Assembly: GCA_944391375.1 (NCBI GenBank)
Contig: CALXTJ010000002.1
Span: 82 to 64,081 of the forward strand
Source: an uncultured Alphaproteobacteria bacterium
Lineage (GTDB): Bacteria > Pseudomonadota > Alphaproteobacteria > RF32 > CAG-239
Direction: 5' to 3'
DNA: 64,000 nucleotides
Below, piece by piece: positions 39,326 through 56,983 of the stretch. Made by a program: the position numbers and the translations under genes. How positions within the stretch are numbered: the stretch's first letter is position 1; each line of letters starts with the position of its first letter. Under the pieces are notes generated by a model. The model saw only the letters and a program-made list of their open reading frames with translations, made no database searches and had not been told where the DNA came from.

Positions 39326-40339
39326 TTATCGGCAGTTTTGCACTTTTGATAACCGAACAGAATTGCCGTTAAGGTTTTCCATGGCGGCAATTGTTTCAGG
39401 CTTTACTTTCAGCACATCGGCAATAAAATTTAAATCTTTACCCATTTTTTGGGCTGCCGGTTTAAAAGTAATATTCCAAGGAGTTTGAGCTTGAAGCTCT
39501 TGCTTTAAGGCTAACAGTTCGGCATTGTTATGATTTAACAGTTGTGAGGCCAAATACCATGTTGCCAGCCATTCATGAGGGTAACGATAATCACTTTGAG
39601 CATTGCGTCCGTCTTCAAGGCGGAATTCTCCGCTATAATTTCCATAATTTTTTAAGGCTTCAAACAAAGGCATTTTAATAAAGCGAGCGGCTTCGGAATT
39701 ATGTTCGTGGCGATTGATATCGGCAGAATTTGCAACTAAGCGGTTTAGTAAATCTTCTGGGGTTTTGAGTAAATGGCAATAGGGAGTAATGGCCCAGGCC
39801 ATACCTTTGCCGTTCCAACGATTGATAATAAAATTGTCATCTTTAATATCCGGCATTCCGACAAGCTGCATTTTTTCAAAAGGAATATCATAATCGTATA
39901 TACCCAGATTATTTAGCTCTTCACGAGTTTCCCGTATAACATTATTTTTACGGATAACATTGATGTCATCGGTTATAACAACATTTCCGTCTTTTAATAT
40001 GACATCATCTTTATAATCAAGGAGTTGATGCTTTTTATGATCCGGAAGCAAGTTAAAATAGTCTTTATCCGTTCTCTCGGATAGTCCGCCCAAAGCACCG
40101 ATACCGTCAGGTTCAGCTGTTTTGGCATTTAAGCGGGAGATAAGACCGACATACACATTTTTAAACTGTTCGGAAAAATTTTTACCGCCTGTAATATCCC
40201 CGCAATACAAAGTAACATTTGCTCCCGAACTTTTGATTAAATTACGATTTTTAAGATCTGCCAAAATTTGTTGACGAGCTTGACCTTTAGGGGCGTTTTT
40301 AAGGGCGTCTAAGACTTCTTGTGCTGACGAATATAACAT
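39326..40339 (-). CDS. hypothetical protein
   Basis: 337-aa ORF. The imperfect Nudix-like stretch IRETREELNNLGI is insufficient for assignment. Confidence 0.35.
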   Translation of the reverse strand: MLYSSAQEVLDALKNAPKGQARQQILADLKNRNLIKSSGANVTLYCGDITGGKNFSEQFKNVYVGLISRLNAKTAEPDGIGALGGLSERTDKDYFNLLPDHKKHQLLDYKDDVILKDGNVVITDDINVIRKNNVIRETREELNNLGIYDYDIPFEKMQLVGMPDIKDDNFIINRWNGKGMAWAITPYCHLLKTPEDLLNRLVANSADINRHEHNSEAARFIKMPLFEALKNYGNYSGEFRLEDGRNAQSDYRYPHEWLATWYLASQLLNHNNAELLALKQELQAQTPWNITFKPAAQKMGKDLNFIADVLKVKPETIAAMENLNGNSVRLSKVQNCR

Positions 40340-40447: not shown

Positions 40448-40993
40448 TTATTTTACGGTACGGCGGAAATAAACATATTCCATAATGGCCAGTACTCCGA
40501 ATAAAACGATATATAAACCCAAAATGGTAGTTATGGCAATAGCTCCAAGTCCGGGATAAGTTAGCATTAAAAAGCCGAATATAATGCCGGCCAGTCCCAA
40601 GACCATGCTTAATTGCCAAGGAAGCATAAATTTTTTCAAACGGTAGGAACTTACCAGTTGAGCCGCACCGATAGCCAAAATCCACAAAGCCAGGAAGATA
40701 GGCAAGGTAGCAGCAGTTACACCCAAATTGGCAACAAAAATAATACCCAAGATGATATCAATTAAGCCGACAAACATATGCCAACCCGAGGCAAAGTCTA
40801 AAGATACGGCGACATAGCCGATACCCGCCAAAATTAAGCCGACACCAATGTATAAGCTTAAAGCCATGAGGCTGGCCATAGGATTAAACCATACCATTAA
40901 ACCTAAAGCTACAAGTAATATTCCCGAAAACAAGTGCCACAAACCGACACGGGGAGAATTTAATTCTTGTATTTTTACTTCAAACATTTTCAA
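40448..40993 (-). CDS. HdeD/DUF308-like acid-resistance-type membrane protein
   Basis: Repeated GxxLxxxG TM-pair pattern: GILLVALGLMVWFNP...LYIGVGLILAGIGYV. Confidence 0.5.
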   Translation of the reverse strand: MKMFEVKIQELNSPRVGLWHLFSGILLVALGLMVWFNPMASLMALSLYIGVGLILAGIGYVAVSLDFASGWHMFVGLIDIILGIIFVANLGVTAATLPIFLALWILAIGAAQLVSSYRLKKFMLPWQLSMVLGLAGIIFGFLMLTYPGLGAIAITTILGLYIVLFGVLAIMEYVYFRRTVK

Positions 40994-41140
40994 CTCCTTT
41001 TTTATTTATCACATATAATTATGTAGTGTTTGTTTTTGTAATTTTCTATAGTTCTAAAAAACTTTAAGAGAAACATCTTCAAAAAACTAAAACGATAATT
41101 ATCTTTTTTAAGGCCAACTTTTTTAATAAGGAGAAGATAA

Positions 41141-41530
41141 ATGAACAAAAAACTTTTAGCTTTAACAACGGCTTTAACGGTAGCTGTTTCAGGTGCGGCA
41201 TTTGCCAAGTGCGATTATGAAGATTGTATGAAAATGATGCATCGTGACATGGGTGGATTTGTACAATCACAGGCCGATATTTCAACTGTCAAGCAAGCTA
41301 TGGAAATGCCTGATGACGCAATAGTTACCTTAAAAGGCAATATTGAAAAGCAGGTTAAAAAAGACAAATATATTTTTAAGGATGCCACAGGAGAAATGAC
41401 GGTTGAAATCGGTAAAAAAATTTGGGCCGGACAAACCGTAAGCCCGAGTGATACGGTAGTTATAACCGGTGAAATTGATAAAGACTTTGAACATAGAAAA
41501 TTAGATGTTGAAAGATTAACCAAAGAATAA
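41141..41530 (+). CDS. YgiW/YdeI (BOF, OB-fold) periplasmic stress protein
   Basis: Signal peptide, then DDAIVTLKGNIEK...DKYIFKDATGEMTVEIGKKIW...VVITGEIDKDFEHRKLDVERL. Confidence 0.65.
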   Translation: MNKKLLALTTALTVAVSGAAFAKCDYEDCMKMMHRDMGGFVQSQADISTVKQAMEMPDDAIVTLKGNIEKQVKKDKYIFKDATGEMTVEIGKKIWAGQTVSPSDTVVITGEIDKDFEHRKLDVERLTKE

Positions 41531-41567
41531 ACCATTTATAATCAGACCATTATTTGTCAAGAAAAAA

Positions 41568-41600
41568 GATACCCGGCGTAAAACGTCGGATATCTTTTTT
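41568..41600 (+). terminator. intrinsic terminator (AGATACCCGGCG-loop-CGTCGGATATCT + T6) immediately before RBS of 41623 gene
   Basis: Imperfect 12-bp stem plus T-run. Confidence 0.45.
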
Positions 41601-41622
41601 AATTTAATGAAAGGAAAAAATT

Positions 41623-42171
41623 ATGACAAATAAAAAATATAATCCATTTGCGGATATGTATAACTTCAATGCTAACAGCAGTAACTGGGTACAAAGGTTA
41701 GGGCATAATGCGGACTTTTATAATAATCCGCTGGGTTACAACAGCTCACCCACCCCCAGACCTTATGACAACACAACTGCCTCTGGTATAAATAACAGCT
41801 TTAATATCAATAACCGGCAGCCGTCTTCAAGCGGATTGGAAAGTTACAATCAACCTCAAAAGCAGCAGTATACTAGCCCTAAAGTAAAACCCTTTACTTC
41901 ATGGGATATTGCTTTATCAGCTCTTGAAGGATTTGGAGAGGGAGCAGTCGGCGGAATAGAACGAGATCTAAATACATCATCAAAAGGATTATATGATTTG
42001 GGTAGTGATCTTTTTTTTGACGGAAGCTATGAAAAAAGGCAAAAAGAACTTGAAAAACTGGCTCACGAAGCAAATTTGGATAAATTATACAAATATTCAA
42101 ACTATATTATAGATAACTCAATTGAGTATTTAATAAAATATATGTTTATAAAAAATCTGGGAATTTTCTGA
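41623..42171 (+). CDS. cassette protein A: conserved 48-aa N-terminal module (MTNKKYNPFADMYNFNANSSNWVQRLG...) plus variable C-terminal domain
   Basis: N-terminal 48 aa about 98% identical to the 47657 gene. Residues ~70-105 (SGLESYNQPQK...SALEGFGEG) are shared with the 46159 ORF. Confidence 0.5.
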   Translation: MTNKKYNPFADMYNFNANSSNWVQRLGHNADFYNNPLGYNSSPTPRPYDNTTASGINNSFNINNRQPSSSGLESYNQPQKQQYTSPKVKPFTSWDIALSALEGFGEGAVGGIERDLNTSSKGLYDLGSDLFFDGSYEKRQKELEKLAHEANLDKLYKYSNYIIDNSIEYLIKYMFIKNLGIF

Positions 42172-42249
42172 AATAATTTGCCTTGACATTGATTATCATA
42201 TTTTTTAAATCTGAAGATTATAGTAGGGTAAGTTTTATGGAGAATGTTG

Positions 42250-42783
42250 ATGAAAAAAATTACTGTATCAGATATTAACACCTGTATTTGGGGTGAAAGT
42301 CCGTTATCTTTTTATTTTTCCTTTGATGGAGTTTTTAATCGCTTGCAGTTTTTCGGAAGCATTGCTACATTAAACATTATCCTAAATATTATAAATGCTG
42401 CAGGAATATATATTTTGACGATGTTTGGTTATGCATTATGTCTTTATGCAATGCTGGCAGCAGCTCAAAAGCGTATGCATGATATGAATAGGCAAGGCAG
42501 TGCACTGATTTTGTTACTCTCTGTTAGTTGTATTTTAACAGGGGCTACGGCTCAATTGCATTTTTTGGGAGAAGTTGACATTGCCGAGAATATATACCTC
42601 AAAAACATTTTCGGAATATCGTTTTTAGTATATTTAGTTTTGCAAGCATTTTTATTGTTCATGCCCGGAGCAAAGAAGAAGGATATGAGCAAAAGAAGTC
42701 CGTTATTAAAAAATCCTCCGTTGTATTTTTTAATATGCGTGATAATTTATGCCATAGTCGCCTATTTTATCAGAGATTTATAG
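42250..42783 (+). CDS. DUF805-like inner-membrane protein (candidate cognate/immunity-like gene)
   Basis: YFSFDGVFNRLQFF and YAMLAAAQKRMHDMNRQGS resemble DUF805 motifs. The C-terminal 39 aa are identical to the 44135 protein. Confidence 0.45.
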   Translation: MKKITVSDINTCIWGESPLSFYFSFDGVFNRLQFFGSIATLNIILNIINAAGIYILTMFGYALCLYAMLAAAQKRMHDMNRQGSALILLLSVSCILTGATAQLHFLGEVDIAENIYLKNIFGISFLVYLVLQAFLLFMPGAKKKDMSKRSPLLKNPPLYFLICVIIYAIVAYFIRDL

Positions 42784-42802
42784 CCTGTAAGAGATTACCA
42801 AA

Positions 42803-42834
42803 GAGGGGGTAAAAGCTCCCTCTGTGGTATTTTA
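42803..42834 (+). terminator. terminator hairpin AGAGGGGG-TAAAA-GCTCCCTCT plus T-run (cassette boundary element, copy 1)
   Basis: Repeated at 44690 and 47326. Confidence 0.45.
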
Positions 42835-42845
42835 AAAGCAGACAA

Positions 42846-42970
42846 GGGAGAGGGAAATCGCTCTCAAAACGGACAAAAATGGCTTTTTTAATGACAAAAT
42901 CGGACACTTTCGGACGGTTCCGGACACTTTCGGACAGTTTCGGACAGTTTCGGACACTTTCGGACTGGAC
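42846..42970 (+). repeat. conserved leader (GGGAAATCGCTCTCAAAACGGACAAAAATGGCTTTTTTAATGACAAAAT) plus 7 phased 10-bp tandem units CGGAC(A/G)NTTT
   Basis: Units at 42901-42970: CGGACACTTT, CGGACGGTTC, CGGACACTTT, CGGACAGTTT, CGGACAGTTT, CGGACACTTT, CGGACTGGAC. Confidence 0.7.
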
Positions 42971-42975
42971 ATTTT

Positions 42976-43006
42976 TTGTAAAAAAAGGCTATAAAAAAGC
43001 TATAAT
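42976..43006 (+). promoter_or_regulatory. sigma70-like promoter TTGTAA-N19-TATAAT directly downstream of the 10-bp array
   Basis: Identical copy at 47502-47532. Confidence 0.45.
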
Positions 43007-43147
43007 CGTGAGAAGTTGTGCAAGCTGCTTTAAAAGAAAAGAGTGATGTTAAAAATGGTCGCAATACTATTGACAGTAGTTTAAGTGATAACTATGCTAA
43101 CGAAATAGGACGGCTGTTAGGAACAAAATATCGCAAAGGAGATTGTG

Positions 43148-43273
43148 ATGCTCTCATCCAACAATACATTAACAAAAATTGGTAAGTGGCTTATTGTATC
43201 TTTTGTTTTCGTTGCGGGGCTTGTGCTTACTGCCCTTATTAGTTTGAGCTGTGTCTACATCTTCAGCTTGTAA
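43148..43273 (+). CDS. small hydrophobic peptide (41 aa, one TM) downstream of cassette promoter
   Basis: MLSSNNTLTKIGKWLIVSFVFVAGLVLTALISLSCVYIFSL; below the 60-aa ORF-track cutoff. Confidence 0.2.
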   Translation: MLSSNNTLTKIGKWLIVSFVFVAGLVLTALISLSCVYIFSL

Positions 43274-43314
43274 CAGGTCTATAAAATTGTTTGAGTAAAA
43301 CAAGGAGATTGCTG

Positions 43315-44106
43315 ATGAAAAAGGCTCTGTACATTCTTTTAGAGGTCTTGTTTATATTTTTGATTGTAAATAATCGGGAATATTGGCTTGTTGCCGACCA
43401 AGCAGTCCGGGTAAGCGGAGTTTATGTATGGCTTATCTTAACGGCTTATTCTGTCCTTAAAACATACGGAGCCTTTAATTGGAAACTTACCATAAAACCT
43501 GTTTTTGTAATATGTGAACTATTGTTGTTTATATTATCGGGTTGCGTTTTGGAATTATACACCCAAAGTTTGGCAATAACCCCACAAATACACACTGTAT
43601 TTTTACCCTTAATTTTTTATGTTTTGGTATTGGGGACGGGATGGTATATACTGCCTAAAAACAACCCGACAATAAACGATTTTACCACCCATTGTCAACA
43701 GCATTCCAAACGTTATCTTGCTTTGATTTGGTTTTTGGCTGCCTTGTTTATATGTCCGCCGATTTTAACCGTTGTTTACAGCAAGGTATGGTTTGTGCTG
43801 ATACTGATGGGAATATACGTGTTTTTGCCGTATAAAATAAGTACTTTGTTGCTCAAAGATTTATCGTTAAACAAATTCTTTTCATTAGGAAAAGTAATTC
43901 CCGTAATGTTGATAATTTTTGTTCAGATAAATCTGGAAGCGATACTCAGTGGTTTTTGTTTTTACGGATCTTGGTTGGATGCTTATAGGTTGGTAAAATA
44001 CATAATAATTATTGCCGTTTTGCGGTGTATTATTTGCAGCTTAATATTATGCGTATTAGATTACAAACAAACCAAAGGATTATTTATAACAGCCAAAACA
44101 AAATAA
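43315..44106 (+). CDS. hypothetical polytopic membrane protein (cassette gene)
   Basis: About 8 TM helices. RBS AAGGAG 8 nt before ATG 43315. Confidence 0.4.
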   Translation: MKKALYILLEVLFIFLIVNNREYWLVADQAVRVSGVYVWLILTAYSVLKTYGAFNWKLTIKPVFVICELLLFILSGCVLELYTQSLAITPQIHTVFLPLIFYVLVLGTGWYILPKNNPTINDFTTHCQQHSKRYLALIWFLAALFICPPILTVVYSKVWFVLILMGIYVFLPYKISTLLLKDLSLNKFFSLGKVIPVMLIIFVQINLEAILSGFCFYGSWLDAYRLVKYIIIIAVLRCIICSLILCVLDYKQTKGLFITAKTK

Positions 44107-44134
44107 ATAAGGTTAATCATATAAGAGGTGATTT

Positions 44135-44671
44135 ATGGAAGAAGGAACAAAAAAGCCGGAAGAAGATGACGCATTGTTCAAAGAGGATGCCAAGACCATA
44201 TATTTTTCATTTGAAGGGGTATTCGGTCGCATACAATTTTTTATAGTAGCGGTTACCCTCGGTGGTTTTATGGATTTGATGAGTACGGGAAATAATATAG
44301 TACTCGTAGCCATAGGCACAGCCATAGTATTTTATGCGATGCTGGCAGCGATTCAAAAACGCAGTCGTGATATGAATATTGGCGGTAGTTTGTTTATTTT
44401 ATTGTATTCTCTGAGTTTTCCGATAAGTCGGATGATGTTATACGGTAGGGATACTGGAAATCCGATAATTATCCATAACGACATAATTCGGACCAGTTTT
44501 TACGGAGCGTTAATAGGATATTTGATAGTATCATTGCTTTTAGTGCTTATACCCGGAGCAAAGAAGAAGGATATGAGCAAAAGAAGTCCGTTATTAAAAA
44601 ATCCTCCGCTGTATTTTTTAATATGCGTAATAATTTATGCCATAGTCGCCTACTTTATCAGAGATTTATAG
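44135..44671 (+). CDS. DUF805-like inner-membrane protein, paralog of 42250..42783
   Basis: YFSFEGVFGRIQFF, YAMLAAIQKRSRDMNIGGS, and an identical C-terminal 39 aa. Confidence 0.45.
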   Translation: MEEGTKKPEEDDALFKEDAKTIYFSFEGVFGRIQFFIVAVTLGGFMDLMSTGNNIVLVAIGTAIVFYAMLAAIQKRSRDMNIGGSLFILLYSLSFPISRMMLYGRDTGNPIIIHNDIIRTSFYGALIGYLIVSLLLVLIPGAKKKDMSKRSPLLKNPPLYFLICVIIYAIVAYFIRDL

Positions 44672-44689
44672 TCTGTAAGAGATTACCAA

Positions 44690-44720
44690 AGAGGGGGTAA
44701 AAGCTCCCTCTTTAGTGTTT
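44690..44720 (+). terminator. cassette boundary terminator hairpin, copy 2
   Basis: AGAGGGGGTAAAAGCTCCCTCT plus TTAGTGTTTT. Confidence 0.45.
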
Positions 44721-44773
44721 TAAAAGCAGACACAATATATAGTAATTTTGTAACAAATATATTATGCACAAGT

Positions 44774-44800
44774 GCCGAAGCTCATAACTTCGGTATTTTT
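44774..44800 (+). terminator. conserved stem-loop GCCGAAG-CTCATAA-CTTCGGT plus T-run, copy 1 (just before RBS)
   Basis: Same element at 47602 and 48959. Confidence 0.45.
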
Positions 44801-44823
44801 TATATAAAAGAAAGGAAAAAATT

Positions 44824-44940
44824 ATGACAAATAAACTAATTACCATGGCTGGTAAATATGCAGTTAAAAAAGTTCGTAATAAAACCGTTAATAAGGCCAT
44901 GGAAAAAATAAGCGAGCCATATGAAAAATTCAAAAAATAG
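44824..44940 (+). CDS. small ORF (38 aa) starting MTNK..., possible decayed remnant of the conserved N-terminal module
   Basis: First 12 nt (ATGACAAATAAA) identical to the 41623 and 47657 genes. Preceded by the conserved stem-loop plus RBS. Confidence 0.2.
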   Translation: MTNKLITMAGKYAVKKVRNKTVNKAMEKISEPYEKFKK

Positions 44941-45145
44941 GTTTTCGGCATAAAACCTCTAAATGTTGGGGAAAGAGAAACCATAAAATGTTTACAAAAT
45001 CGTCATAATACCTTAGATTATTGTAAGAATATAGGAAACAAGGCAAGGAAAGCTTATCAAAAATCCGTAAAATATAGGTAACTTTTTATTAAAACCAAAA
45101 TACGCATCAACACGGACAATATGCACTGTATAACGGGAAGATAAT

Positions 45146-45406
45146 ATGAAAAAGATAATACTGTTTATAATTGGTCTTATGTGTATACCGCCGATATTGG
45201 GTTATTTGACGACATATGTAAGTAACAATCCGGAATATGAAATATACACCGGATTTTGGGGAGTCCTGTATCTATTTATTTATATTCTTTTTCCTTTGTT
45301 ATATAAAGGGAAAATAAAACAAGCTATGAATAGATATGCTTTTTATGCCTTGTTGTACGGCATTTTGTTTCTGATAATAAATATATTGCTCATTTGCTTT
45401 AATTAA
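45146..45406 (+). CDS. small membrane protein (3 TM), hypothetical
   Basis: ORF with hydrophobic helices. Confidence 0.3.
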   Translation: MKKIILFIIGLMCIPPILGYLTTYVSNNPEYEIYTGFWGVLYLFIYILFPLLYKGKIKQAMNRYAFYALLYGILFLIINILLICFN

Positions 45407-45464
45407 ATATGATGAAGCTGTAAAAAGCAGCAAGATTATAATGGTAAATAGAAAGGATAGAGAA

Positions 45465-45965
45465 ATGAAGAATATAATATTTTTACTGTTGGCAGTACTA
45501 ATTCCGACATTGAGTTTGGCAGCAGAAGAAAAGTCAATATTTACATATGAAGCAGAAAAATGTTCCGGTGAAGAAGATGTATTTATACGAGGTTTAGAGG
45601 AAGAATTAGCTAATTGTAAAATTCAAATGCCGGATAATCCATCTACGGTAGATATGAATGAAACTTATTACAAAGTCGGCGATTGCTCTATTGCTGTAGC
45701 CAATAAACTTTTTGATAGAAATTACAAAAAGTATAATGAGCAGGTAAAACAGGATTTTGATGCACTTGTCAAAGCATTTTATGCAAATGCTCATGATATG
45801 GTTCAACATAGCGATTTTGGACTTTTAAGAGGAGGAACTATGTACAATACGGAAGCCATTGCTACGGGGGCTTTTTGGATTAGAGATGTGGTAAAAGAAT
45901 ACCTTTATCAAGCACGAATGGAATGCGATGATAAGGCAGGATTTGATTCACTGGATATAGAATAG
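45465..45965 (+). CDS. secreted hypothetical protein (signal peptide)
   Basis: MKNIIFLLLAVLIPTLSLAAEEK signal; RBS AGGATAGAGA. Confidence 0.35.
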   Translation: MKNIIFLLLAVLIPTLSLAAEEKSIFTYEAEKCSGEEDVFIRGLEEELANCKIQMPDNPSTVDMNETYYKVGDCSIAVANKLFDRNYKKYNEQVKQDFDALVKAFYANAHDMVQHSDFGLLRGGTMYNTEAIATGAFWIRDVVKEYLYQARMECDDKAGFDSLDIE

Positions 45966-46062
45966 ATTATTTTAATCAAACAATGAAAAAGAGACTTGTA
46001 AAAGTCTCTTTTTTGTGCTTTTAAAGAAAGGAAAAATAAGTTAGGCTAGATAAAATGATATG

Positions 46063-46180
46063 GAAATCGCTCTCAAAACGGACAAAAACGGCGTATTTAA
46101 TGACAAAACCGAACAAAATTGAACAATTCTGAACAAAATTAAACAAAAGTGAACATTTTTGAACAAAATTGAACAATCTT
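46063..46180 (+). repeat. conserved leader plus variant phased 10-bp array (GAACAAAATT-type x7)
   Basis: Leader GGAAATCGCTCTCAAAACGGACAAAAACGGCGTATTTAATGACAAAACC. Units at 46111-46180: GAACAAAATT, GAACAATTCT, GAACAAAATT, AAACAAAAGT, GAACATTTTT, GAACAAAATT, GAACAATCTT. Confidence 0.65.
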
Positions 46181-46788
46181 TAAGCGGATTGGAAAGTTAC
46201 AATCAACCTCAAAAGAAGCAGTATACTAACCCTAAAGTAAAACCCTTTACTTCATGGGATATTGCTTTATCAGCTCTTGAAGGATTTGGAGAGGGTATTA
46301 TTGCTGTTCCTAATAGATCTTTTGAAATACTAAAAAACAGTCCTGATCGCCTATCTTCTCTGACAGATACGATGTATAATTTAGTTACAAATTCAAAAAA
46401 TTTATTTAATAATGAGCAAGAATATAAAACTAGAGATCCTGTTTCAACAAATCAATCTACCTTGGAAAATGTTATAAATTATTTGAAACAATACCAATTA
46501 GATAGAGAAATACAACTTTCAGATATTAACAAGCATCAACATATGAGCTGTTTATCAGGAAAGGATGGATTGAGTTTAGGTCTTTTAGGCTTAACAGTGG
46601 GTGCAGGAAAGGAAATAGCGGAGTTTTTCAAAAAATCTTTCAGTCCACAACAAAGAAAAGCATATGGTGGTATTAGCGGTATACTTGCAGACGGTATTAA
46701 AGATATGAATAATAATGTCAAAGGATTTAAACATTCTTATGTTGATGGTAAGGAATGTTATCCACTATTAAAAGAACCATTGCCATAA
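46159..46788 (+). CDS. orphan 5'-truncated cassette C-terminal module (shares a 113-bp junction region with the 41623 gene, then a distinct C-terminus)
   Basis: 46182-46294 is nearly identical to 41829-41943 (...SGLESYNQPQKKQYTNPKVKPFTSWDIALSALEGFGEG). The annotated start lies inside the repeat array, so the N-terminal module is missing. Confidence 0.4.
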   Translation: MNKIEQSLSGLESYNQPQKKQYTNPKVKPFTSWDIALSALEGFGEGIIAVPNRSFEILKNSPDRLSSLTDTMYNLVTNSKNLFNNEQEYKTRDPVSTNQSTLENVINYLKQYQLDREIQLSDINKHQHMSCLSGKDGLSLGLLGLTVGAGKEIAEFFKKSFSPQQRKAYGGISGILADGIKDMNNNVKGFKHSYVDGKECYPLLKEPLP

Positions 46789-46855
46789 TACTTTACAAAG
46801 CACATAAAAAGATTAAATATATAAGGAGGGTTATAATTGTTGGGAAATGTAATAA

Positions 46856-47314
46856 ATGATCATTAAACTGCAGAATGTTTTGTTTGTATTGGGAGTTACT
46901 TTTGTTATACAACTGCTATATATGTTGTTGATGTTTATAATTTTTTTATTAAATAACAATCTAGCAGTTAATAATGAAGAGCTTTTTTTATTTGTTTTGG
47001 ACAATGTTTTATTTGTATCCATAGCCTTAGGAGCCATTAACCTATTTAGTAATAGGTTGTCTTTATATATTTACGAAAAAAGTATAAAAAAAATACCTAA
47101 TTTACGGTGGTATTGTATGTTCTTTAGCTGGACTGTCATTATCCAAAAATTCATACCCGAATTTGAAATCTTTTATGCTGTTTTAATAAGTTGTATAGTT
47201 GGTGCATTGTGTTATCCTGATCGTACCTGGAAACAAAGAGTTAGATATTCATTGATATTTGTTGCTATTTTATTGATGTATTTCTTGGGAGGTTTTACCG
47301 ATTTTGAAAATTAA
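46856..47314 (+). CDS. small polytopic membrane protein (candidate cognate/immunity-like gene of orphan module)
   Basis: 4 TM helices, immediately downstream of 46159..46788. Confidence 0.35.
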   Translation: MIIKLQNVLFVLGVTFVIQLLYMLLMFIIFLLNNNLAVNNEELFLFVLDNVLFVSIALGAINLFSNRLSLYIYEKSIKKIPNLRWYCMFFSWTVIIQKFIPEFEIFYAVLISCIVGALCYPDRTWKQRVRYSLIFVAILLMYFLGGFTDFEN

Positions 47315-47325
47315 CATCATACCAA

Positions 47326-47360
47326 AGAGGGAGGATAAAAACTCCCTCTTTAGTGTTTTA
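47326..47360 (+). terminator. cassette boundary terminator hairpin, copy 3
   Basis: AGAGGGAGGATAAAAACTCCCTCT plus TTAGTGTTTT. Confidence 0.45.
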
Positions 47361-47371
47361 AAAGCAGACAA

Positions 47372-47496
47372 GGGATAGGGAAACCGCTCTCAAAGCGGAC
47401 AAAAACGGCGTATTTAATGACAAAATCGGACACTTTCGGACGGTTCCGGACACTTTCGGACATAATCGGACAGTTTCGGACACTTTCGGACTGGAC
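47372..47496 (+). repeat. conserved leader plus 7 phased 10-bp tandem units CGGACNNTTT, copy 3
   Basis: Units at 47427-47496: CGGACACTTT, CGGACGGTTC, CGGACACTTT, CGGACATAAT, CGGACAGTTT, CGGACACTTT, CGGACTGGAC. Confidence 0.7.
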
Positions 47497-47501
47497 ATTT
47501 T

Positions 47502-47532
47502 TTGTAAAAAAAGGCTATAAAAAAGCTATAAT
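47502..47532 (+). promoter_or_regulatory. sigma70-like promoter TTGTAA-N19-TATAAT, copy 2
   Basis: Identical to 42976-43006; lies 5 bp after the array. Confidence 0.45.
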
Positions 47533-47567
47533 CGTGAGAATTTGTGCAAACTACAAAATCTCACGAT
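47531..47567 (+). promoter_or_regulatory. perfect 9-bp inverted repeat ATCGTGAGA-N19-TCTCACGAT overlapping the -10/+1 region (operator-like)
   Basis: Read directly from the sequence. Only the left half-site is present in copy 1 (43005-43013). Confidence 0.4.
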
Positions 47568-47601
47568 TATATTTTAACTTAAACTAAAATTTTAACAACA
47601 A

Positions 47602-47632
47602 ATACCGAAGCTCATAACTTCGGTATTTTTTT
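47602..47632 (+). terminator. conserved stem-loop ATACCGAAG-CTCATAA-CTTCGGTAT plus T7, copy 2 (attenuator/terminator-like, directly before RBS of 47657)
   Basis: Perfect 9-bp stem plus T-run, between the promoter and the gene. Confidence 0.5.
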
Positions 47633-47656
47633 ATTTAAAAGAAAGGAAAATAAATC

Positions 47657-48379
47657 ATGACAAATAAAAAATATAATCCATTTGCGGATATGTATAACTT
47701 CAATGCCAACAGCAGTAACTGGGTGCAAAGGTTAGGATATAATGCGGATTTTTATAATAATCCGCTGGGCTATAACAGCTCTCCCACCCCCAGACCTTAT
47801 AAAATCGCCAGTAATGATATACCAGTGGTAAATAACAATAAAAAAGTTGATTACTCAGCTTATGGAGAGGGTTTTAGTAAAGAATTTATTGATAAGATGC
47901 TTGATGATAAACGTTTCAATAATATCATGAACAGTAGAGTAATAAATAACGAAGGTGGATACGTTAATCATCCTAATGATTTAGGAGGTGAAACAAAATA
48001 TGGGATTACTAGTAGATGGTATCCTAATGAAGATATAAAAAACCTAACAAGAGAAAGGGCTAATGCTATTTTATACAGAGACTATTGGCAAAAAACAAAT
48101 ATTCATCAACTTCCCGATGAATTTGCCGATATTGTTTTTGATGACAGCATTGTTCAAGGACAGCCAACAGCTATTAGAAATTTACAAAAAGCTTTGGGTG
48201 TTAATGATGATGGTATCATCGGTCCCAAAACATTAAAAGCATTTCAGCACCAAAATCACAATATTATACGAACAAAATTTATAAAAAATGTTAATGATGT
48301 TGAAAATGAAAATATAAAGAACAACCCTTCTCAAAAAGTTTTTGAAAAGGGTCATAGAAACAGATTTAACGCTTATTAG
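47657..48379 (+). CDS. cassette protein with conserved N-terminal module plus GH108-like lysozyme domain and PG_binding_3-like domain
   Basis: N-terminal 48 aa shared with 41623. GGYVNHPNDLGGETKYGIT resembles the GH108 signature (EGGYVNDPxDxGGxTxxGIT). C-terminal ...ALGVNDDGIIGPKT resembles a peptidoglycan-binding domain. Confidence 0.6.
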   Translation: MTNKKYNPFADMYNFNANSSNWVQRLGYNADFYNNPLGYNSSPTPRPYKIASNDIPVVNNNKKVDYSAYGEGFSKEFIDKMLDDKRFNNIMNSRVINNEGGYVNHPNDLGGETKYGITSRWYPNEDIKNLTRERANAILYRDYWQKTNIHQLPDEFADIVFDDSIVQGQPTAIRNLQKALGVNDDGIIGPKTLKAFQHQNHNIIRTKFIKNVNDVENENIKNNPSQKVFEKGHRNRFNAY

Positions 48380-48837
48380 TTTCTAGCTAATATTGACCTA
48401 ATTATAGTTGATATATAATTTTTTAGTGCTTCAGTTGTGGCGTATTCGCTATATAAATAAGGTGAAACGCCACAATTATTTTTACGGCAATAGTTAGTTT
48501 CATTATATACAAATAAATAGTTGTCATACATATAATTATCATACTGATTAAGGCGTTCCCTTGCTTCTCTGTCAGATAAATTATAGTATTCTGTTATAAT
48601 TATTTCACCTACATCTTTATAGCAATCTCTGGTTTTATGATGTAAATCAATTAAAAAGTTATAACATTTCATACTCCAAGTTTCAGGGCATGTTGTACTT
48701 TGTTTAGTAAATTCATCAGAACATTTTATAAAATCATCATCTAATTTATTTATAGAGGATGATATTTCAGCACTAACACTGGTTGCAGACATTAAAAAGC
48801 TCAAAAGAGAAATAATGTATATTTTTTTCATAATCAA
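48376..48837 (-). CDS. secreted Cys-rich periplasmic protein, convergent with GH108 gene (candidate immunity protein)
   Basis: Signal peptide MIMKKIYIISLLSFLMSATSVSA, 8 Cys residues, RBS AAGGA. Its stop overlaps the 47657 gene's stop. Confidence 0.4.
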   Translation of the reverse strand: MIMKKIYIISLLSFLMSATSVSAEISSSINKLDDDFIKCSDEFTKQSTTCPETWSMKCYNFLIDLHHKTRDCYKDVGEIIITEYYNLSDREARERLNQYDNYMYDNYLFVYNETNYCRKNNCGVSPYLYSEYATTEALKNYISTIIRSILARN

Positions 48838-48958
48838 TTATCCTTATGCATAAAACCGACGAAGAAAGTTTAGATTTAATCCATAATATAAGCAACAACT
48901 TTTATAGTTAAAGCACAAGAAAATAATATTTTAACTCAAACTAAAATTTTAACAACCA

Positions 48959-48989
48959 ATACCGAAGCTCATAACTTCGGTATTTTTTT
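48959..48989 (+). terminator. conserved stem-loop ATACCGAAG-CTCATAA-CTTCGGTAT plus T-run, copy 3, directly before RBS of portal gene
   Basis: Identical to the element at 47602. Preceded by the shared block TTAACTCAAACTAAAATTTTAACAACCAAT. Confidence 0.5.
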
Positions 48990-49008
48990 ATAATAAGAAA
49001 GGAAAATA

Positions 49009-50787
49009 ATGTTCGCATATACTCTTGAAAAAGAAAGCTTTATGTCAACGGGAAATCCCGATGATAAGCGGGCAGTAGTTCAAGATGTGGTGGATTTATT
49101 CACATCTTGGGATACTGTTCGTACCAAACAAAAAAATATTGCCGATAAGTTGCATTCGGAAATCTATCTGGATGACCGAAAAAAAACTTATGTCCCGGAA
49201 GATGACGAATGGAAATCGGATATCCATCTTAATAAAATCTATTCGTTATTCCAAACACATCAGGCCTACATTTGGGATAATATCTATTCTAATGTGGAAA
49301 ATATGTTTGATGTTGAAGGAATTGATGATCTTTCGGCACAAACGGCTTTGTTGCAAAAACAAAAACTGGTTAATACCTTTTATAATATCGGTATTCAACG
49401 CAAGCTGGATACCGCTATTGAGCATTTAGACAGTGTCGGTGAAATTTGTTTGTTTATCGGTTGGCAAAAAAAATATAAACAAATCCGCCGTCGTTTGGAT
49501 AAATTCAGCTCCTCTGCCGATAAGCCCTTGCTTACTCAAGGCTTGTTCGGGGTGTTTAATCAGGAAATTTATAACGGAGCCGATGTTGAGGCCATCAACC
49601 CGCTCAATTTGGTATTTGACCCCAGGGTTAATCCCGACGATAAGGAAAAATGGGATGCCTGTGGTAAAATTATTAAATCATGGGAAACTTATCAGTCGGT
49701 AGCTTCCAATAAATTGTATAATCTTAAAAAAGAAGAGCTTGATGATTTGCATAAAATGTTAAACTCTCCTTCCAAAGATGAAGATCGTTCGGAAACCGAT
49801 AAAACCGATGATGTGGTTGATAGCGATAGGGTTGAGGTTTTACAATATTGGGGGGATTATGTTACCCCCAAAGGCAATGTTTTAAAAAACTGGCATATCG
49901 TAGTTATCGGTCGTAAATATCTGGCGGTGTTTGAACCTAATCGCTGGGTAATTAACCCGATTATCAATATGGCTTTGTTTAGGGATATCAACAGTAAACG
50001 AGGTATTCCCGAATTATGGTCCATTTACGATATATGTAAGGAACAGGAAAATAAAGTAAACTTACAAAATGATGCTCAATCACTTAACCTAAATCCTCCG
50101 GCCTATGCTCCGGAGGGTTTTTTTAAGGAGGAAAAAGTAAAACTCTTCCCCGGTAAACAAGTGGAATACAAACAGGGTCTTGAAGATCCCGGAGCAATCA
50201 TCAAAATGCAGTTTCCGTTGTTCAGCAATGAAAATATTATTCAGTATTATGACAATACGGCTTCAAGCGTAAGCGGTATTTTTCCCAATATGCAGGGACA
50301 ACAGGAAATAAGCAAAGCCACGGCCACCGAAATAAGCATTAAGGTTCAGGGACAAACCACGCGTTTGGGTAAAACTTTGGATACCATCAAGCAAAATGTT
50401 ATTGTCCCGATGGTGCAAAAAGTTGCCGAACTTGAAGCTAATATGAAATTCGGCGATGAGGTTTTAAAGCTTAACATTTTGGGGTATCCGGTTACCAAAA
50501 CCATTGATGATGTGGTGCGTCAGGGCAATTATGAATATCGTTATACCGATAATACCGGTATTCAGAAAAAACTTAACACCAATCAAACGCTTATTCAGAT
50601 TTTTACGCAAATCTGGAATGATGAAAGCGTCCCCTTAAACAAACTGCAAATTGTTAAAGAAGTACTGCGTAATGCCGGCATAGAAAATACCGAAAAGTTT
50701 TTTCTAAGCCAAAATCAAATTCCGGCAGCCAATCAAAATACAGCGGCTGCCGGTGTCAACAATAATCTTTTACCCGTTCAAAAGTAG
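49009..50787 (+). CDS. putative phage portal (head-to-tail connector) protein
   Basis: 592-aa protein heading a module with scaffold-like and capsid-like genes in podovirus order. Assigned from size, position and composition only. Confidence 0.45.
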   Translation: MFAYTLEKESFMSTGNPDDKRAVVQDVVDLFTSWDTVRTKQKNIADKLHSEIYLDDRKKTYVPEDDEWKSDIHLNKIYSLFQTHQAYIWDNIYSNVENMFDVEGIDDLSAQTALLQKQKLVNTFYNIGIQRKLDTAIEHLDSVGEICLFIGWQKKYKQIRRRLDKFSSSADKPLLTQGLFGVFNQEIYNGADVEAINPLNLVFDPRVNPDDKEKWDACGKIIKSWETYQSVASNKLYNLKKEELDDLHKMLNSPSKDEDRSETDKTDDVVDSDRVEVLQYWGDYVTPKGNVLKNWHIVVIGRKYLAVFEPNRWVINPIINMALFRDINSKRGIPELWSIYDICKEQENKVNLQNDAQSLNLNPPAYAPEGFFKEEKVKLFPGKQVEYKQGLEDPGAIIKMQFPLFSNENIIQYYDNTASSVSGIFPNMQGQQEISKATATEISIKVQGQTTRLGKTLDTIKQNVIVPMVQKVAELEANMKFGDEVLKLNILGYPVTKTIDDVVRQGNYEYRYTDNTGIQKKLNTNQTLIQIFTQIWNDESVPLNKLQIVKEVLRNAGIENTEKFFLSQNQIPAANQNTAAAGVNNNLLPVQK

Positions 50788-50799
50788 AAAGTATTTATC

Positions 50800-51000
50800 G
50801 TGGATTTAATAGAACTTCGTGAACTGATGCGTTCCGAAAAGGGTCGGCTGTTGTTATGCTACCTTACGGATTTTATGGTTGAAGTTTCCACCCGCGGTAA
50901 TGCCAACGCCGAATGGATAAAAGGTATGGGCATGCTTATCAATCATTTAAAAGAAATTGATGAAATATGCCAAAAATTAAATGAAGAAAAAAGGAGATAA
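50800..51000 (+). CDS. small hypothetical phage protein
   Basis: Short ORF between the portal and scaffold genes; GTG start. Confidence 0.2.
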   Translation: MDLIELRELMRSEKGRLLLCYLTDFMVEVSTRGNANAEWIKGMGMLINHLKEIDEICQKLNEEKRR

Positions 51001-51002
51001 AA

Positions 51003-51992
51003 ATGACAATTAAAACTAAATCAACACCTTCACAGCGTTTGACGGATAACTCCTCTGATATATTTGTTGCGGATACCTCTCTAAAAGAGCCTGAAGCAGT
51101 ATATCAAGAGCCCGTAAGCGATGCTATGGAAGCTGATGTTAATGATAAAGCCTTGGAAGATGGCGGTCTTATCTTTGGTAAGTTTAAGACCATGGAAGAG
51201 GCTCAAAAAGGCTATAAAGAGGCGGAACGAGCCATCACGAGAGCCGCCGATTTGGAAAAAGAACTGCAAAACTACCAGTATCTTTCCAAAGCTTATGAAG
51301 AAGATGCCATAGCTAGGCAGAACGGTTATTCCGATCGTTTGGAAATGGCACTTAATCATGATGTAAAGCAACATGAACTTGACAGTTATGCCTTGGCGGC
51401 AAGCCATACATTACCGTATCAGGCTCAGTTGGAAGTTGCTCAATTGATAAATATGTGCCGTCTTGGCGGTACGGAAAAGGAATTCAACCTTTTACGGCAG
51501 TATTTTCCGCCGCAAGTGGTAGCATTGGTTTCCGAAGATGCGGCTTTATACAAAAATTCGCGTCAGGGCGAGTTTGATAATATCCGCAGTAACGATAAAG
51601 CCATTCGTTATGCTCGGAAATTGCATGAATTCCGCAATCAAAACGAGAGTTGGTTTGATTCTCCCTTAAAAGAAGACCTTATAAATCAGGCTCTGGAAGT
51701 CTCGGACGGCAGAGTAGATTTAAACGGGCTTAAAAAAATGGCCGATGCCGTAGTGGAAGAAGCTCTCAAAAAATATCAAACCGGTCAGGATACGGCGTAT
51801 CAAAATGCTCTGATGCAAGACAGTTTGCAAACTCCGGGCAATGATAACACGCGTATCAAAAACAAAAAATGGCTTACCAAGGATGAGTACTACAAACTCA
51901 CTCCGGCACAGGAAGCCGAAAAATATGATTTAATCGTGGAACAGGTTTTGCTTGAAAAACAAGGCAAGTTACCGCGTATGTTAACCAAATAA
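51003..51992 (+). CDS. putative capsid scaffolding/assembly protein
   Basis: Acidic, helix-rich, low-complexity 329-aa protein between portal and capsid. Confidence 0.4.
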   Translation: MTIKTKSTPSQRLTDNSSDIFVADTSLKEPEAVYQEPVSDAMEADVNDKALEDGGLIFGKFKTMEEAQKGYKEAERAITRAADLEKELQNYQYLSKAYEEDAIARQNGYSDRLEMALNHDVKQHELDSYALAASHTLPYQAQLEVAQLINMCRLGGTEKEFNLLRQYFPPQVVALVSEDAALYKNSRQGEFDNIRSNDKAIRYARKLHEFRNQNESWFDSPLKEDLINQALEVSDGRVDLNGLKKMADAVVEEALKKYQTGQDTAYQNALMQDSLQTPGNDNTRIKNKKWLTKDEYYKLTPAQEAEKYDLIVEQVLLEKQGKLPRMLTK

Positions 51993-52016
51993 TTTAATTT
52001 TTGAAAGGAAAAAACT

Positions 52017-52955
52017 ATGTCAACAAATGCAGAAACTTTAAACAGACAATTATCCGCCATTATTCCCGAAGTATGGAGTATGTCTTTAACCAAAGGTTTG
52101 GATAAATCCGGTGTGGGAATGAAGGTAGTTAATCGTATTCACGAAGCCGATACTCACGAATACGGCGATACCGTAAACATCGGTGAATTGGGTGATGTAA
52201 CTATTTCCGATTACTCGGAAGATGTATCCTCAGGCGGTGTAAATTACCAAAGAATTGATGCCAAAAATCAGCAATTAAAGCTTGATCAAAGCAAGGCTTT
52301 CGGTATTTTTGTTTCCGATATCAGCAACAAACAGGGCAACATTAAAGACTTGCAGTCTAAAATTGAAGCCAAAGCCAAAACGGCAATTGATTTGGCCAAA
52401 GATACCTATATTCTTTCGGCATTTTCGGAAATTCCTGAGGAAAACAAACTGGATAACATTACTTTAACTCCTGATAATGCTTATAAGTGCTTGGTATGGT
52501 TGTCTAAGACCTTAAAGAACAATAACGCCGTTCAACTTAAAAACGATCAGGTGTTTAAGTCCAATCAAGCCGGCGGCGATGCCATGCCGTATGTAATAAT
52601 CAATCCGGATGTTGAAGCAATTTTATTGCAATCACCCGATTTTATTCATGCTACCCAAGCCGGCGACAGAGTGTTGCGTGAGGGTTCAATCGGTACCATT
52701 GCCGGATTGGATGTTTTGGTATCCACCAACTTGCCGACAACCGAGAAAAAAGTCAACATTATGGCCGGTATCAATGATGCCATTGCCTTTGTGGGCAATA
52801 TTTCGCATATTGAAGCCATTCGTGATGAAAAATTCTTCGGCACCAATATCCGCGGCTTATATGTTTACGGTAAAAAAGTAGTTTTACCGAAAGCCTTAGC
52901 CGGTATGACGGTAGATGTAAGTGCTGCTGATTCCATTGTGGAAGCTGCAGCTTAA
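52017..52955 (+). CDS. putative major capsid protein
   Basis: 312-aa protein after the scaffold, strong RBS, followed by a strong terminator hairpin. Assigned by position and size. Confidence 0.45.
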   Translation: MSTNAETLNRQLSAIIPEVWSMSLTKGLDKSGVGMKVVNRIHEADTHEYGDTVNIGELGDVTISDYSEDVSSGGVNYQRIDAKNQQLKLDQSKAFGIFVSDISNKQGNIKDLQSKIEAKAKTAIDLAKDTYILSAFSEIPEENKLDNITLTPDNAYKCLVWLSKTLKNNNAVQLKNDQVFKSNQAGGDAMPYVIINPDVEAILLQSPDFIHATQAGDRVLREGSIGTIAGLDVLVSTNLPTTEKKVNIMAGINDAIAFVGNISHIEAIRDEKFFGTNIRGLYVYGKKVVLPKALAGMTVDVSAADSIVEAAA

Positions 52956-52995
52956 CATTAAAATAGAGTCATATAAATCCTTTCGTTATAAAAAA

Positions 52996-53030
52996 CAGAG
53001 GACGCAATGTAAATTGCGTCCTCTGCTGGT
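52996..53030 (+). terminator. intrinsic terminator after capsid gene (CAGAGGACGCAAT-loop-ATTGCGTCCTCTG)
   Basis: 13-bp perfect stem with a weak T-run. Confidence 0.5.
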
Positions 53031-53062
53031 TTAAAGGAAAAATGTTTTGAGGAGAAATAAAA

Positions 53063-53293: not shown

Positions 53294-53308
53294 TAAAAAG
53301 GAGGAAAG

Positions 53309-53974: not shown

Positions 53975-53984
53975 GGAGGCGGCC

Positions 53985-55574: not shown

Positions 55575-55597
55575 TTTTAAATAAAGAGGAGGCAATA

Positions 55598-55810: not shown

Positions 55811-55822
55811 GAGGTTGGTAAA

Positions 55823-56916: not shown

Positions 56917-56983
56917 CAGTAAAATTAAGAATAAAACTCCGCTTATTAAAAGCGGAGTTTTAAATTTTTAAAGGAGATAAAAA

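Follow-up and report, generated by a model that had tools for sequence, protein, structure and literature searches.

A cassette array beside a phage structural module

We analyzed a 64-kb stretch of DNA (hereafter, the window) from an uncultured gut alphaproteobacterium, in which an array of short genes separates chromosomal genes from the portal gene of a podovirus-like structural module. Judged from its sequence, this region is very probably a polymorphic toxin/immunity array of a podovirus-like prophage, inserted between the phage's TerL and portal genes. Upstream, it is flanked by chromosomal genes for BOF, DUF308 and RecJ proteins, with the BOF gene directly abutting the array; downstream lies the 11-kb structural and lysis module (49009-60171), which extends from the array to a chromosomal UDP-glucose dehydrogenase gene. 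A preliminary description of this DNA had attached the array to a phage structural module, and the array does lie in a phage head/packaging region. Its G+C content is low (28-35%, versus ~39% in the surroundings). The array comprises five toxin cassettes. The toxin gene is intact in two of them; of the other three toxin genes, the first was displaced, the second is interrupted by a nonsense codon and the third lacks its 5' end. The partner genes, which encode membrane or secreted proteins, are all intact (8/8). Coordinates below are window positions, and features lie on the plus strand unless a minus sign is given.

The first cassette opens with an intact toxin gene (41623-42171), whose 182-aa product consists of a constant N-terminal module (41623-41766), an N/Q/P-rich linker with a junction sequence (41824-41942) ending in ...ALEGFGEG, and a helical C-terminal domain, CT1. 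It is followed by the gene for a DUF805-like polytopic membrane protein of 179 aa (42244-42783), a candidate CT1 immunity protein with a borderline Pfam match to DUF805 (1.8e-05). A terminator hairpin (42802-42823) is followed by a promoter-like intergenic element, the two spanning 42802-43026; the element holds a tract of the 10-bp repeat TCGGACAnTT (42900-42959) and the sequence TTGTAAAAAAAGGCTATAAAAAAGCTATAAT, and its right end is a recombination breakpoint.

There follows an orphan 3' remnant of a prok-SAA (lipocone) toxin gene (43018-43185, 55 codons), a fourth toxin that the preliminary description had missed. Its identity follows from a Pfam SAA match above the cut-off (2.3e-11); it keeps the ANEIGR version of the sNxxGR motif and matches the C-termini of two full-length module+SAA proteins, P0005 and one encoded at 4326-4913 of the related locus L006. 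A 42-aa open reading frame (ORF) at 43145-43273 overlaps the remnant in a different frame and was taken as spurious. Downstream are the genes for a polytopic membrane protein of 263 aa from the ATG at 43315 (43315-44106), which is intact in the related loci L002, L006 and L014 and is a candidate immunity protein for the SAA-like toxin, and for a second DUF805-like membrane protein of 178 aa (44135-44671). The last 39 aa of the two DUF805-like proteins are identical, in agreement with their earlier description as paralogs.

The third cassette starts with a terminator-like leader hairpin (44770-44798), composed of GCCGAAGCTCATAACTTCGGT and a U-run, just 5' of the ribosome-binding site (RBS) of a gene for a small basic protein (44824-45081). 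Its leader and its opening four codons (MTNK) are also those of the module. It had been described as a 38-aa ORF, an orphan that retained only the first 12 nt of the module; the shared leader and 12 nt stand, and the ORF proves to be the 5' part of an 85-codon gene interrupted by a TAG at 44938-44940. The 85-aa ORF is intact in L006 (6759-7016) and L014, and L002 carries the same stop codon as the window. Two candidate immunity genes follow, one for an 86-aa membrane protein with three hydrophobic segments (45146-45406) and one for a secreted, putatively periplasmic protein with four cysteines (45441-45965), whose signal peptide probably starts at M9 (45465).

Next comes a degenerate intergenic element (46057-46176) with seven 10-bp units of the TGAACAAAAT type, containing the scar of a deletion in which the following gene lost its leader, RBS and module. 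That gene is a 5'-truncated toxin gene (46177-46788) encoding the junction and an unclassified C-terminus, CT3; its mechanically called ORF begins at a TTG at 46159 that has no RBS. It is followed by the gene for a 152-aa membrane protein with four hydrophobic segments (46856-47314), a candidate CT3 immunity protein that is 100% identical in L014.

A terminator (47324-47351), a promoter-like element with its 10-bp tract (47426-47485) and a leader hairpin (47600-47628), together spanning 47324-47628, introduce the fifth cassette. Its intact toxin gene (47657-48379) encodes 240 aa, namely the module, a GH108 muramidase domain (Pfam 1.6e-21, 77 bits against a cut-off of 21.2) with the EGGY...DxGGxTxxGI motif, and PG_binding_3, also confirmed by Pfam, as had been proposed for this protein. 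In the related protein P0134, this C-terminus is preceded by two modules in tandem. An AlphaFold2 (AF2) model of the 240-aa protein from its single sequence was unusable (pLDDT 34). Convergent to this gene lies one for a secreted 153-aa protein with six cysteines (48376-48837, -), a weak candidate for a periplasmic inhibitor of the GH108 enzyme. A further leader hairpin (48958-48984) stands directly 5' of the portal gene; the L007 lineage has a like arrangement.

A topology scan found no hydrophobic segment in any of the three module/junction proteins, and every partner gene downstream of the effectors encodes a polytopic protein or one with a signal-peptide-like N-terminus, which bears out the earlier statement that small membrane or secreted genes follow the modules. 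N-terminal residues 1-90 contain no signal peptide and have no match in Pfam, NCBIfam or PHROG.

Repeats and shared leaders

A repeat analysis of positions 40500-49500 resolved the segments that the cassettes share. The earlier claim that two genes start with nearly identical modules (~93% over ~145 bp) corresponds to a 152-nt repeat at 93% identity covering the module and its RBS (41615-41766 versus 47649-47800). The junction, said to link the ORF at 46159 to the gene at 41623, recurs over 119 nt at 97% (41824-41942 versus 46177-46295). Two further repeats are the 3' end of the DUF805 genes (195 nt, 94%; 42650-42844 versus 44538-44732) and the intergenic element (225 nt, 92%; 42802-43026 versus 47328-47552), of which a third, degenerate copy lies at 46057-46165. 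Because these identities reach 92-97% over 119-225 nt, chance alignment, which had been named as a possible refutation, is excluded. Further copies had also been proposed as a check: a six-frame search found exactly two modules and two junctions in the whole 64 kb.

The regulatory sequences are repeated as well. Terminator-like sites bracket each cassette (14 found versus 4.1 ± 2.4 expected), and the order 5' of the effectors is four to seven TCGGACAnTT units, a TATAAT-containing element, a stem-loop, a terminator-like U-run hairpin and the RBS. The hairpin-plus-RBS leader is common to the 44824 gene, the 47657 gene and the portal gene (49009), and its 21-nt hairpin core gave three matches versus none expected. 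L007 has a different, two-hairpin leader, again common to a toxin gene and the portal gene, so that leader sharing between toxin and portal genes is seen in two lineages. We infer that the toxin leaders are co-controlled with the late genes, possibly by antitermination. In L010 (230-330) and L007 (9890-10000), the portal gene is preceded by two or three terminator-like U-run hairpins; such hairpins 5' of portal genes suggest that the late genes are under antitermination control. Rfam searches of the leaders and repeats returned only sub-threshold chance matches.

We considered whether the 225-nt repeat might be a generic mobile element and rejected this, since the 10-bp tract occurs in the window only 5' of toxin cassettes and of genes whose products begin with MLGKTN. 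Outside the array, the TCGGACAnTT tract is found at just two window sites. One (33729-33768) precedes the gene for a 639-aa MLGKTN protein (33845-35764); the other (15316-15345, -) precedes a 15-codon MLGKTN remnant (~15200-15260) beside a tRNA-Lys gene. Homologs of the 639-aa protein (E 2e-19) are two proteins of the L007 phage cluster that have the conserved N-terminus in common and differ in the rest, a pattern like that of exchangeable receptor-binding proteins. The shared tract suggests that one regulon links the toxin cassettes with putative fiber genes outside the element.

The constant module carries exchangeable C-termini

Searches of 5.8 billion and 1.84 billion proteins recovered only ~15 carriers of the module, which is present in them in one or two copies and is fused to at least eight different C-termini. 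We could thus confirm from related strains that C-termini are swapped on one module, and that the effectors include the envelope-acting families Tlde1, prok-SAA and GH108. The Pfam cut-offs were 30.1 bits for Tlde1, 30.8 for SAA and 21.2 for GH108. The module is joined to Tlde1 in P0006 (30.7 bits), to prok-SAA in P0005 (44.4 bits), to a GH108 domain different from that of the window in P0007, and to CT1 and a CT1 variant in P0001 and P0002; P0132 and a 427-aa protein of L006 have a longer CT1-like end. Among the unclassified ends, that of P0131 weakly matches Pesticin (0.006, below the cut-off), those of P0133 and P0129 appear by eye to be lysozyme-like and SLT-like, respectively, and that of P0130 is long and glycine-rich. 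CT3 was considered as a possible divergent SAA domain; in one pairwise comparison, the best alignment between the two covered 48 aa (E 0.004).

Swaps occur at two boundaries, which follow the sequences ...TPRPY and ...ALEGFGEG. The module and linker are rich in N, Y and P, and the whole region ahead of the GH108 domain is ~80 aa. Judging by family assignment, all classified C-termini act on peptidoglycan or, for prok-SAA, on lipids: this family is predicted to cleave lipid head groups, and its sNxxGR motif has been described (PMC12419801). Tlde1, a domain with the L,D-transpeptidase fold, is an effector family used by type VI secretion systems (T6SS) and a known antibacterial effector (PMC9638812).

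The window module has no copy in IMG/VR or the JGI metagenomes. A derivation of the module from a structural protein was rejected, as BLASTP found no similarity between the module and the 230-aa structural protein. Five of the six module contexts seen abut a portal gene, these five not being independent of each other; the contig of P0148, at only 1 kb, is uninformative as to context.

Strain comparisons reveal cassette turnover

To reconstruct the history of the cassettes, we compared the window with L002, L014 and L006. Strains differ in which whole cassettes the array contains, and the breakpoints fall at the module end. At the place occupied in the window by CT1, the first DUF805 gene, the intergenic element and the SAA remnant, L002 carries a module+SAA gene that is intact. 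The breakpoints relative to L002 lie at 41775/6 on the left, the module end, and at 43024/5 on the right; between them, 274 nt of the 5' part of the SAA-type gene were replaced by CT1, DUF805-1, the terminator and the intergenic element.

The CT3 gene has a different history. L014 retains the upstream part that the window lacks (leader, module and junction, in P0003), and P0004 is a module+junction+CT3 protein. Comparison with L014 shows that ~275 nt, comprising leader, RBS and module, were deleted from the window, the deletion ending in the 10-bp repeat tract. The ORF at 46159 arose by this 5' deletion and not by displacement of a cassette.

Overall, three of the five effector genes have been inactivated, in three different ways, and none of the eight partner genes is disrupted in any strain that carries it. 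Dead toxins beside intact partner genes form the asymmetry that a toxin/immunity reading predicts.

CT1 and its DUF805 partners

CT1 is an ~85-aa helical domain that begins with the junction and follows the pattern GFGEG..GG.E...N....G.YD......Y.KRQ..L...A...L; it is found in ~45 short proteins. An AF2 model of the CT1 protein, based on a 46-sequence alignment, leaves residues 1-92 unstructured and places four helices at 93-179, at low confidence (pLDDT 47.6). A Foldseek search with this model against the PDB found nothing (best E 6.2), CT1 relatives are absent from IMG/VR, and neither CT1 nor the portal protein has a match in 50,697 GenBank phage records. We infer that CT1 is membrane-active.

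DUF805 genes flank CT1-like genes in L003 and in 18/18 metagenome loci (L017-L034), which together are largely one locus in related strains of another gut organism. This adjacency supports the view that CT1 and DUF805 form a functional pair. By sequence, these loci are a second, independent home of the pair, where CT1 is used with other N-termini. The small arrays of L003 (9319-11098) and L017-L034 interleave CT1-like genes with DUF805 genes, one to three at a time; they differ from strain to strain, and some DUF805 copies are frameshifted. A CT1-like domain also heads a 744-aa protein with an ART-PolyVal domain (7.9e-22), which marks phage polyvalent proteins, predicted to be packaged in the virion and injected with the DNA (PMC5512222).

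The carrier phage element and its relatives

The structural module that follows the array encodes the portal protein, a scaffold-like protein, the major capsid protein (phrog_267, 9.8e-35), two tail proteins of 221 and 529 aa, a 230-aa glycine-zipper-tail protein and a fiber-like protein of 370 aa, together with a holin-like protein, a T4-type lysozyme and membrane proteins. The portal protein matches phrog_332 and phrog_1216 and, weakly, Pfam Head-tail_con, and has more than 240 metagenomic relatives. No prohead protease was recognized in the structural module. A tblastn search of the 64 kb found no match for TerL, TerS or an S24 repressor; integrase and replication genes were not noted in the window, no dedicated queries having been run for them, and chromosomal genes flank the element on both sides. 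The window thus holds a left-truncated phage copy, which has lost the terminase along with all else that lay left of the array.

Related loci show the original arrangement. The closest genome, L006, an uncultured Alphaproteobacteria metagenome-assembled genome, has in order a small terminase-like gene, TerL, an 8-kb array and the portal gene; L014, L001 and the window have the array followed by the portal gene. The ordinary relatives L005 and L012, one an IMG/VR contig and the other a prophage, have no array, and their TerL abuts the portal gene. L011 has one Tlde1 gene between two paralogous genes for four-transmembrane proteins in the TerL-portal gap. L007 encodes four proteins with a 75-aa N-terminal module of its own, all inside the structural cluster, with ends that are Tlde1, SLT-like (by eye), a 578-aa multi-domain protein and one that was not recognized; membrane or secreted genes follow each. 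Taken together, these gene orders indicate that the array is a hypervariable insertion in the packaging/head region of one phage lineage. A weak match (phrog_342, 1.9e-5) links one of the L007 module proteins to a family of internal virion proteins. In a profile search, the L007/L011-type N-terminus was found in nine short proteins only, and it has no copy in IMG/VR.

Two further features of L007 concern its effectors. At 6830-8464, the gene downstream of the SLT-like effector encodes a 184-aa membrane-anchored paralog of the effector's enzymatic domain, and both keep the FTEN motif; an immunity gene of this type is unusual. A 154-aa ORF directly 5' of the portal gene repeats the C-terminal ~130 aa of the 578-aa module protein (coordinates 9432-9896 and 18845-20581), giving a further orphan C-terminal copy in a different lineage.

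The element of L011 (4191-20530) spans ~16 kb beside a tRNA-Phe gene. In addition to its Tlde1 cassette, it encodes an S24 repressor, a small terminase-like protein and TerL, as well as structural and lysis proteins; genes for an integrase or for replication are not recognizable in it. It adjoins the same UDP-glucose dehydrogenase gene. Related elements adjoin this one chromosomal gene in three lineages, between which its protein is 77-92% identical. The phage genes of L011 show about as much divergence as its chromosomal genes. In the comparison with L006, the head genes of the window are 98-99% identical in nucleotides, versus 84.6% for the flanking chromosomal gene.

The structural-module ORFs are all intact in the window. 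Between the window and L014, both of which lack a terminase, the structural genes have a proportion of synonymous differences (pS) of 0.041, versus 0.006 at the chromosomal flank, a synonymous divergence seven times that of the flanking chromosome, and a ratio of non-synonymous to synonymous proportions (pN/pS) of 0.066, from 15 non-synonymous and 59 synonymous differences. This excess of pS with a low pN/pS argues that the diversity of the structural genes was imported by recombination and that these genes are strongly constrained. Elsewhere in the window, a 337-aa chromosomal protein (39326-40339, -) shows seven non-synonymous versus one synonymous difference from L014, unlike its neighbors, although the numbers are small.

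With its intact and constrained ORFs, its missing terminase, its apparent lack of integrase and replication genes in this lineage, and its site beside one chromosomal gene in three lineages, the 11-kb structural module could be a domesticated capsid-based protein-delivery particle and not a dying prophage, a reading that we consider distinctly unlikely. The 48-aa module would then be a cargo-loading tag, the MLGKTN proteins would be exchangeable receptor-binding proteins, and TCGGACAnTT would mark the cargo and receptor-binding genes, one of them at a distance of 8 kb from the element, as a single regulon. The data for the L011, L006 and L014 elements are compatible with a domesticated particle.

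Comparison with known systems

The array has the hallmarks of a polymorphic toxin system in several respects. A constant N-terminus is joined to unrelated C-termini; some of these belong to toxin families (Tlde1, SAA and GH108), and CT1, CT3 and several others have no family. Displaced C-terminal cassettes and recombination are evident from the SAA remnant, the truncated CT3 gene and the breakpoints against L002 and L014. The immunity genes are candidates, identified by their adjacency, by the membrane or periplasmic location of their products and, for CT1-DUF805, by conserved pairing. A trafficking or secretion domain was not found.

The closest kind is the phage-borne polymorphic toxin, exemplified by the MuF toxins (PMC3482391, PMC5576092, PMC11699363). 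These likewise occupy the packaging/head region of prophages in gut bacteria and combine a constant N-terminus with swappable toxins and small immunity genes; their delivery in capsids, predicted in 2012 (PMC3482391), has been proposed and never demonstrated. The array shares the position in the packaging module beside terminase and portal, but its module proteins have no N-terminal MuF domain according to Pfam and are thus not MuF toxins. MuF is a folded head-morphogenesis domain of ~300 aa, whereas the module here is a 48-aa, apparently unstructured segment in one or two copies. The characterized MuF toxins act in the cytoplasm (ADP-ribosyltransferase, (p)ppApp synthetase, glutamine deaminase; PMC11699363), whereas the payloads here are directed at the envelope or periplasm. 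The array also differs in its multi-cassette organization with orphan remnants, its podovirus-like carrier and its host class, the Alphaproteobacteria. In sum, what sets it apart from the phage-borne polymorphic toxins is a tag that is short and apparently unstructured, payloads aimed at the periplasm, arrays of several cassettes with orphans, and a podovirus-like carrier.

Contact-dependent inhibition (CDI, cdiBAI) and Rhs systems resemble the array in their displaced C-termini, in 5'-truncated orphans with kept immunity genes and in arrays that vary between strains. The locus had earlier been likened to CDI, Rhs and T6SS effectors, a comparison that fails for lack of any defining component of these systems: the array proteins have no CdiB, filamentous hemagglutinin repeats, VENN, RHS repeats, PAAR or VgrG, they are only 180-500 aa long, and their boundaries are ...TPRPY and ...GFGEG.

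T4 internal proteins and the cargo of extracellular contractile injection systems (eCIS), such as PVC, offer a parallel in which a short N-terminal tag places unrelated proteins in a phage-derived particle. The T4 capsid targeting sequence is N-terminal and is removed by the prohead protease, and PVC cargo carries packing signals. Differences from the T4 internal proteins are that there is no sequence similarity, that T4 has no adjacent immunity genes, and that no prohead protease is recognized here. T4 also provides a counterpart for the partner genes, in that its virion peptidoglycan hydrolase, the gp5 lysozyme, is countered, in cells where the phage is already established, by phage-encoded periplasmic or inner-membrane proteins (Spackle/Imm), Spackle being a periplasmic inhibitor of gp5 (PMC7677548). 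The T4 pair is single and fixed, however, not modular, polymorphic or arranged in adjacent cassettes, and has no homology to the array proteins.

Pesticin and colicin M, finally, share peptidoglycan or lipid II targets, periplasmic or membrane immunity and an unstructured N-terminus. The array is prophage-borne, not plasmid-borne, and contains no colicin, pyocin or receptor-binding domain, the only hint being the sub-threshold Pesticin match of P0131.

Cassette layout and a proposed route of delivery

A complete cassette consists of a promoter-like element with the 10-bp tract, a leader hairpin and RBS, an effector gene, one to three partner genes and a terminator. Its effector combines one or two copies of the apparently unstructured ~48-aa module, a linker, not always present, with GFGEG at its end, and a C-terminus that varies, without a signal peptide. 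The C-termini (GH108, other lysozyme-like, SLT-like, Tlde1, prok-SAA and CT1) probably attack the envelope from the periplasmic side, and the inner-membrane or periplasmic proteins encoded downstream are their presumed cognate immunity proteins. Diversity is generated by recombination at three sites, namely the module end (...PRPY), the junction and the intergenic elements, which displaces or truncates older toxin genes and leaves their putative immunity genes in place. In the proposed route, the effectors would be made together with the late structural proteins, loaded inside the particle or attached to it, and set free in the periplasm once the particle adsorbs to a cell. For lysogens, the immunity genes would be a defense against sibling or related particles, as kin protection for a weapon or as superinfection exclusion.

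For the N-terminal module, the role we tentatively prefer is that of a virion-association tag, a proposal that falls somewhat short of probable. It is preferred because the proteins have no signal peptide or known secretion marker and the module type tracks the phage lineage; because the payloads act where the ejection proteins of podoviruses pass; and because of the weak phrog_342 match, the link to polyvalent proteins, and the precedents of MuF and of short tags. The array and this delivery route taken together are, on balance, the probable explanation.

Several observations weigh against this account. The cassettes look like autonomous transcription units, each with its own promoter and terminator, and in this resemble morons, the independently transcribed accessory genes of phages. 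The module has no detected similarity to, or predicted interaction with, any structural protein of the element, nor, in a profile-profile comparison, any detectable homology to the L007/L011 N-termini. The element in the window has no terminase and is not an intact temperate prophage, so it may not make complete virions. The CT1-DUF805 arrays of L003 and L017-L034 have no phage gene within 8-10 kb, and their purely chromosomal settings imply that CT1 needs no adjacent particle. P0006, encoded in L015, adjoins genes for LigA and a protein like the coupling protein of type IV secretion systems (T4SS), with no portal gene visible on the 11.6-kb contig. A homolog of the 153-aa protein with the same signal peptide occurs in L006 (3654-4148) without an adjacent GH108 gene. 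CT1, CT3 and all immunity candidates fall in no characterized family, and the AF2 predictions for the toxin proteins are of low confidence.

Alternative explanations

The array might instead encode phage entry enzymes, ordinary virion proteins that breach cell wall and membrane during infection, with superinfection-exclusion partners that block the corresponding enzymes of incoming related phages in the manner of T4 Spackle (PMC7677548); these would be products of an arms race between phages and not interbacterial toxins. This alternative, which shares the virion-association step with our proposal and differs from it in purpose only, is unlikely. It would account for the preponderance of peptidoglycan hydrolases among the payloads, for genes in the head/packaging region that share a leader with the portal gene, and for immunity genes kept after toxin loss, which fits an exclusion of competitor phages. 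It fits poorly with Tlde1 and prok-SAA, which are known or predicted lethal antibacterial effectors (PMC9638812, PMC12419801), with the presence of two to four different intact effectors in one element, and with CT1-DUF805 arrays that have no phage nearby; the ordinary relatives, moreover, infect without any such gene.

Two further explanations dispense with the particle, and we regard both as improbable, to much the same degree. The effectors could be soluble, colicin- or pesticin-like bacteriocins released by lysis, with the module serving as an import epitope recognized by an outer-membrane protein and the Ton or Tol machinery. An N/Y/P-rich module and linker, predicted to be unstructured and present in one or two copies, would suit such a role, as would periplasmic payloads whose periplasmic or membrane immunity resembles that of pesticin/Pim and colicin M/Cmi; one payload weakly matches Pesticin (0.006, below the cut-off), and the same element encodes a holin-like protein and a lysozyme. 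Against this, Pfam identifies no colicin-type domain, there is no receptor-binding domain, and only ~80 aa precede GH108; the siting of cassettes in the structural cluster in three lineages and the leader shared with the portal gene would also be left unexplained. Alternatively, the effectors could be substrates of a host secretion system outside the window (T4SS, T6SS or another), with the module as signal and the prophage as a recombination-prone carrier. The L015 gene for module+Tlde1 near a T4SS coupling-protein-like gene, the membership of Tlde1 in a T6SS effector family (PMC9638812), the CT1-DUF805 pairs in non-phage loci and the cassettes' own promoter-like elements are consistent with this. 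The proteins carry no PAAR, VgrG, Hcp, MIX, LXG or XVIPCD-type marker, however, and no secretion-system gene was noticed in the 64 kb, of whose ORFs a subset was scanned; module types track phage lineages, and five of six module contexts, though not independent, abut the portal gene.

That the array is non-functional debris, decaying accessory genes in a dying prophage, is highly improbable: three of five effector genes are disrupted and the terminase and whole left arm of the prophage are missing, but across strains two of the effectors and the full set of eight partner genes remain intact, the structural genes have a pN/pS of 0.066 (15 versus 59 differences) in two terminase-less strains, and the same architecture recurs in independent lineages.

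Significance for toxin trafficking

An 11-kb particle module and a 48-aa tag that is the sole feature common to otherwise unrelated effectors make a test case of convenient size, and the site of action of the payloads, the periplasm, matches the route of podovirus ejection proteins. Even if delivery were conventional, the array would add a new constant module and a new helical toxin family, CT1, with DUF805 as its likely immunity protein, as well as new contexts for Tlde1 and prok-SAA effectors. If the tag does load particles, it would represent a new mode of trafficking for antibacterial toxins in the gut and a short, portable packaging signal, and it would explain why prophages carry rows of orphan immunity genes.

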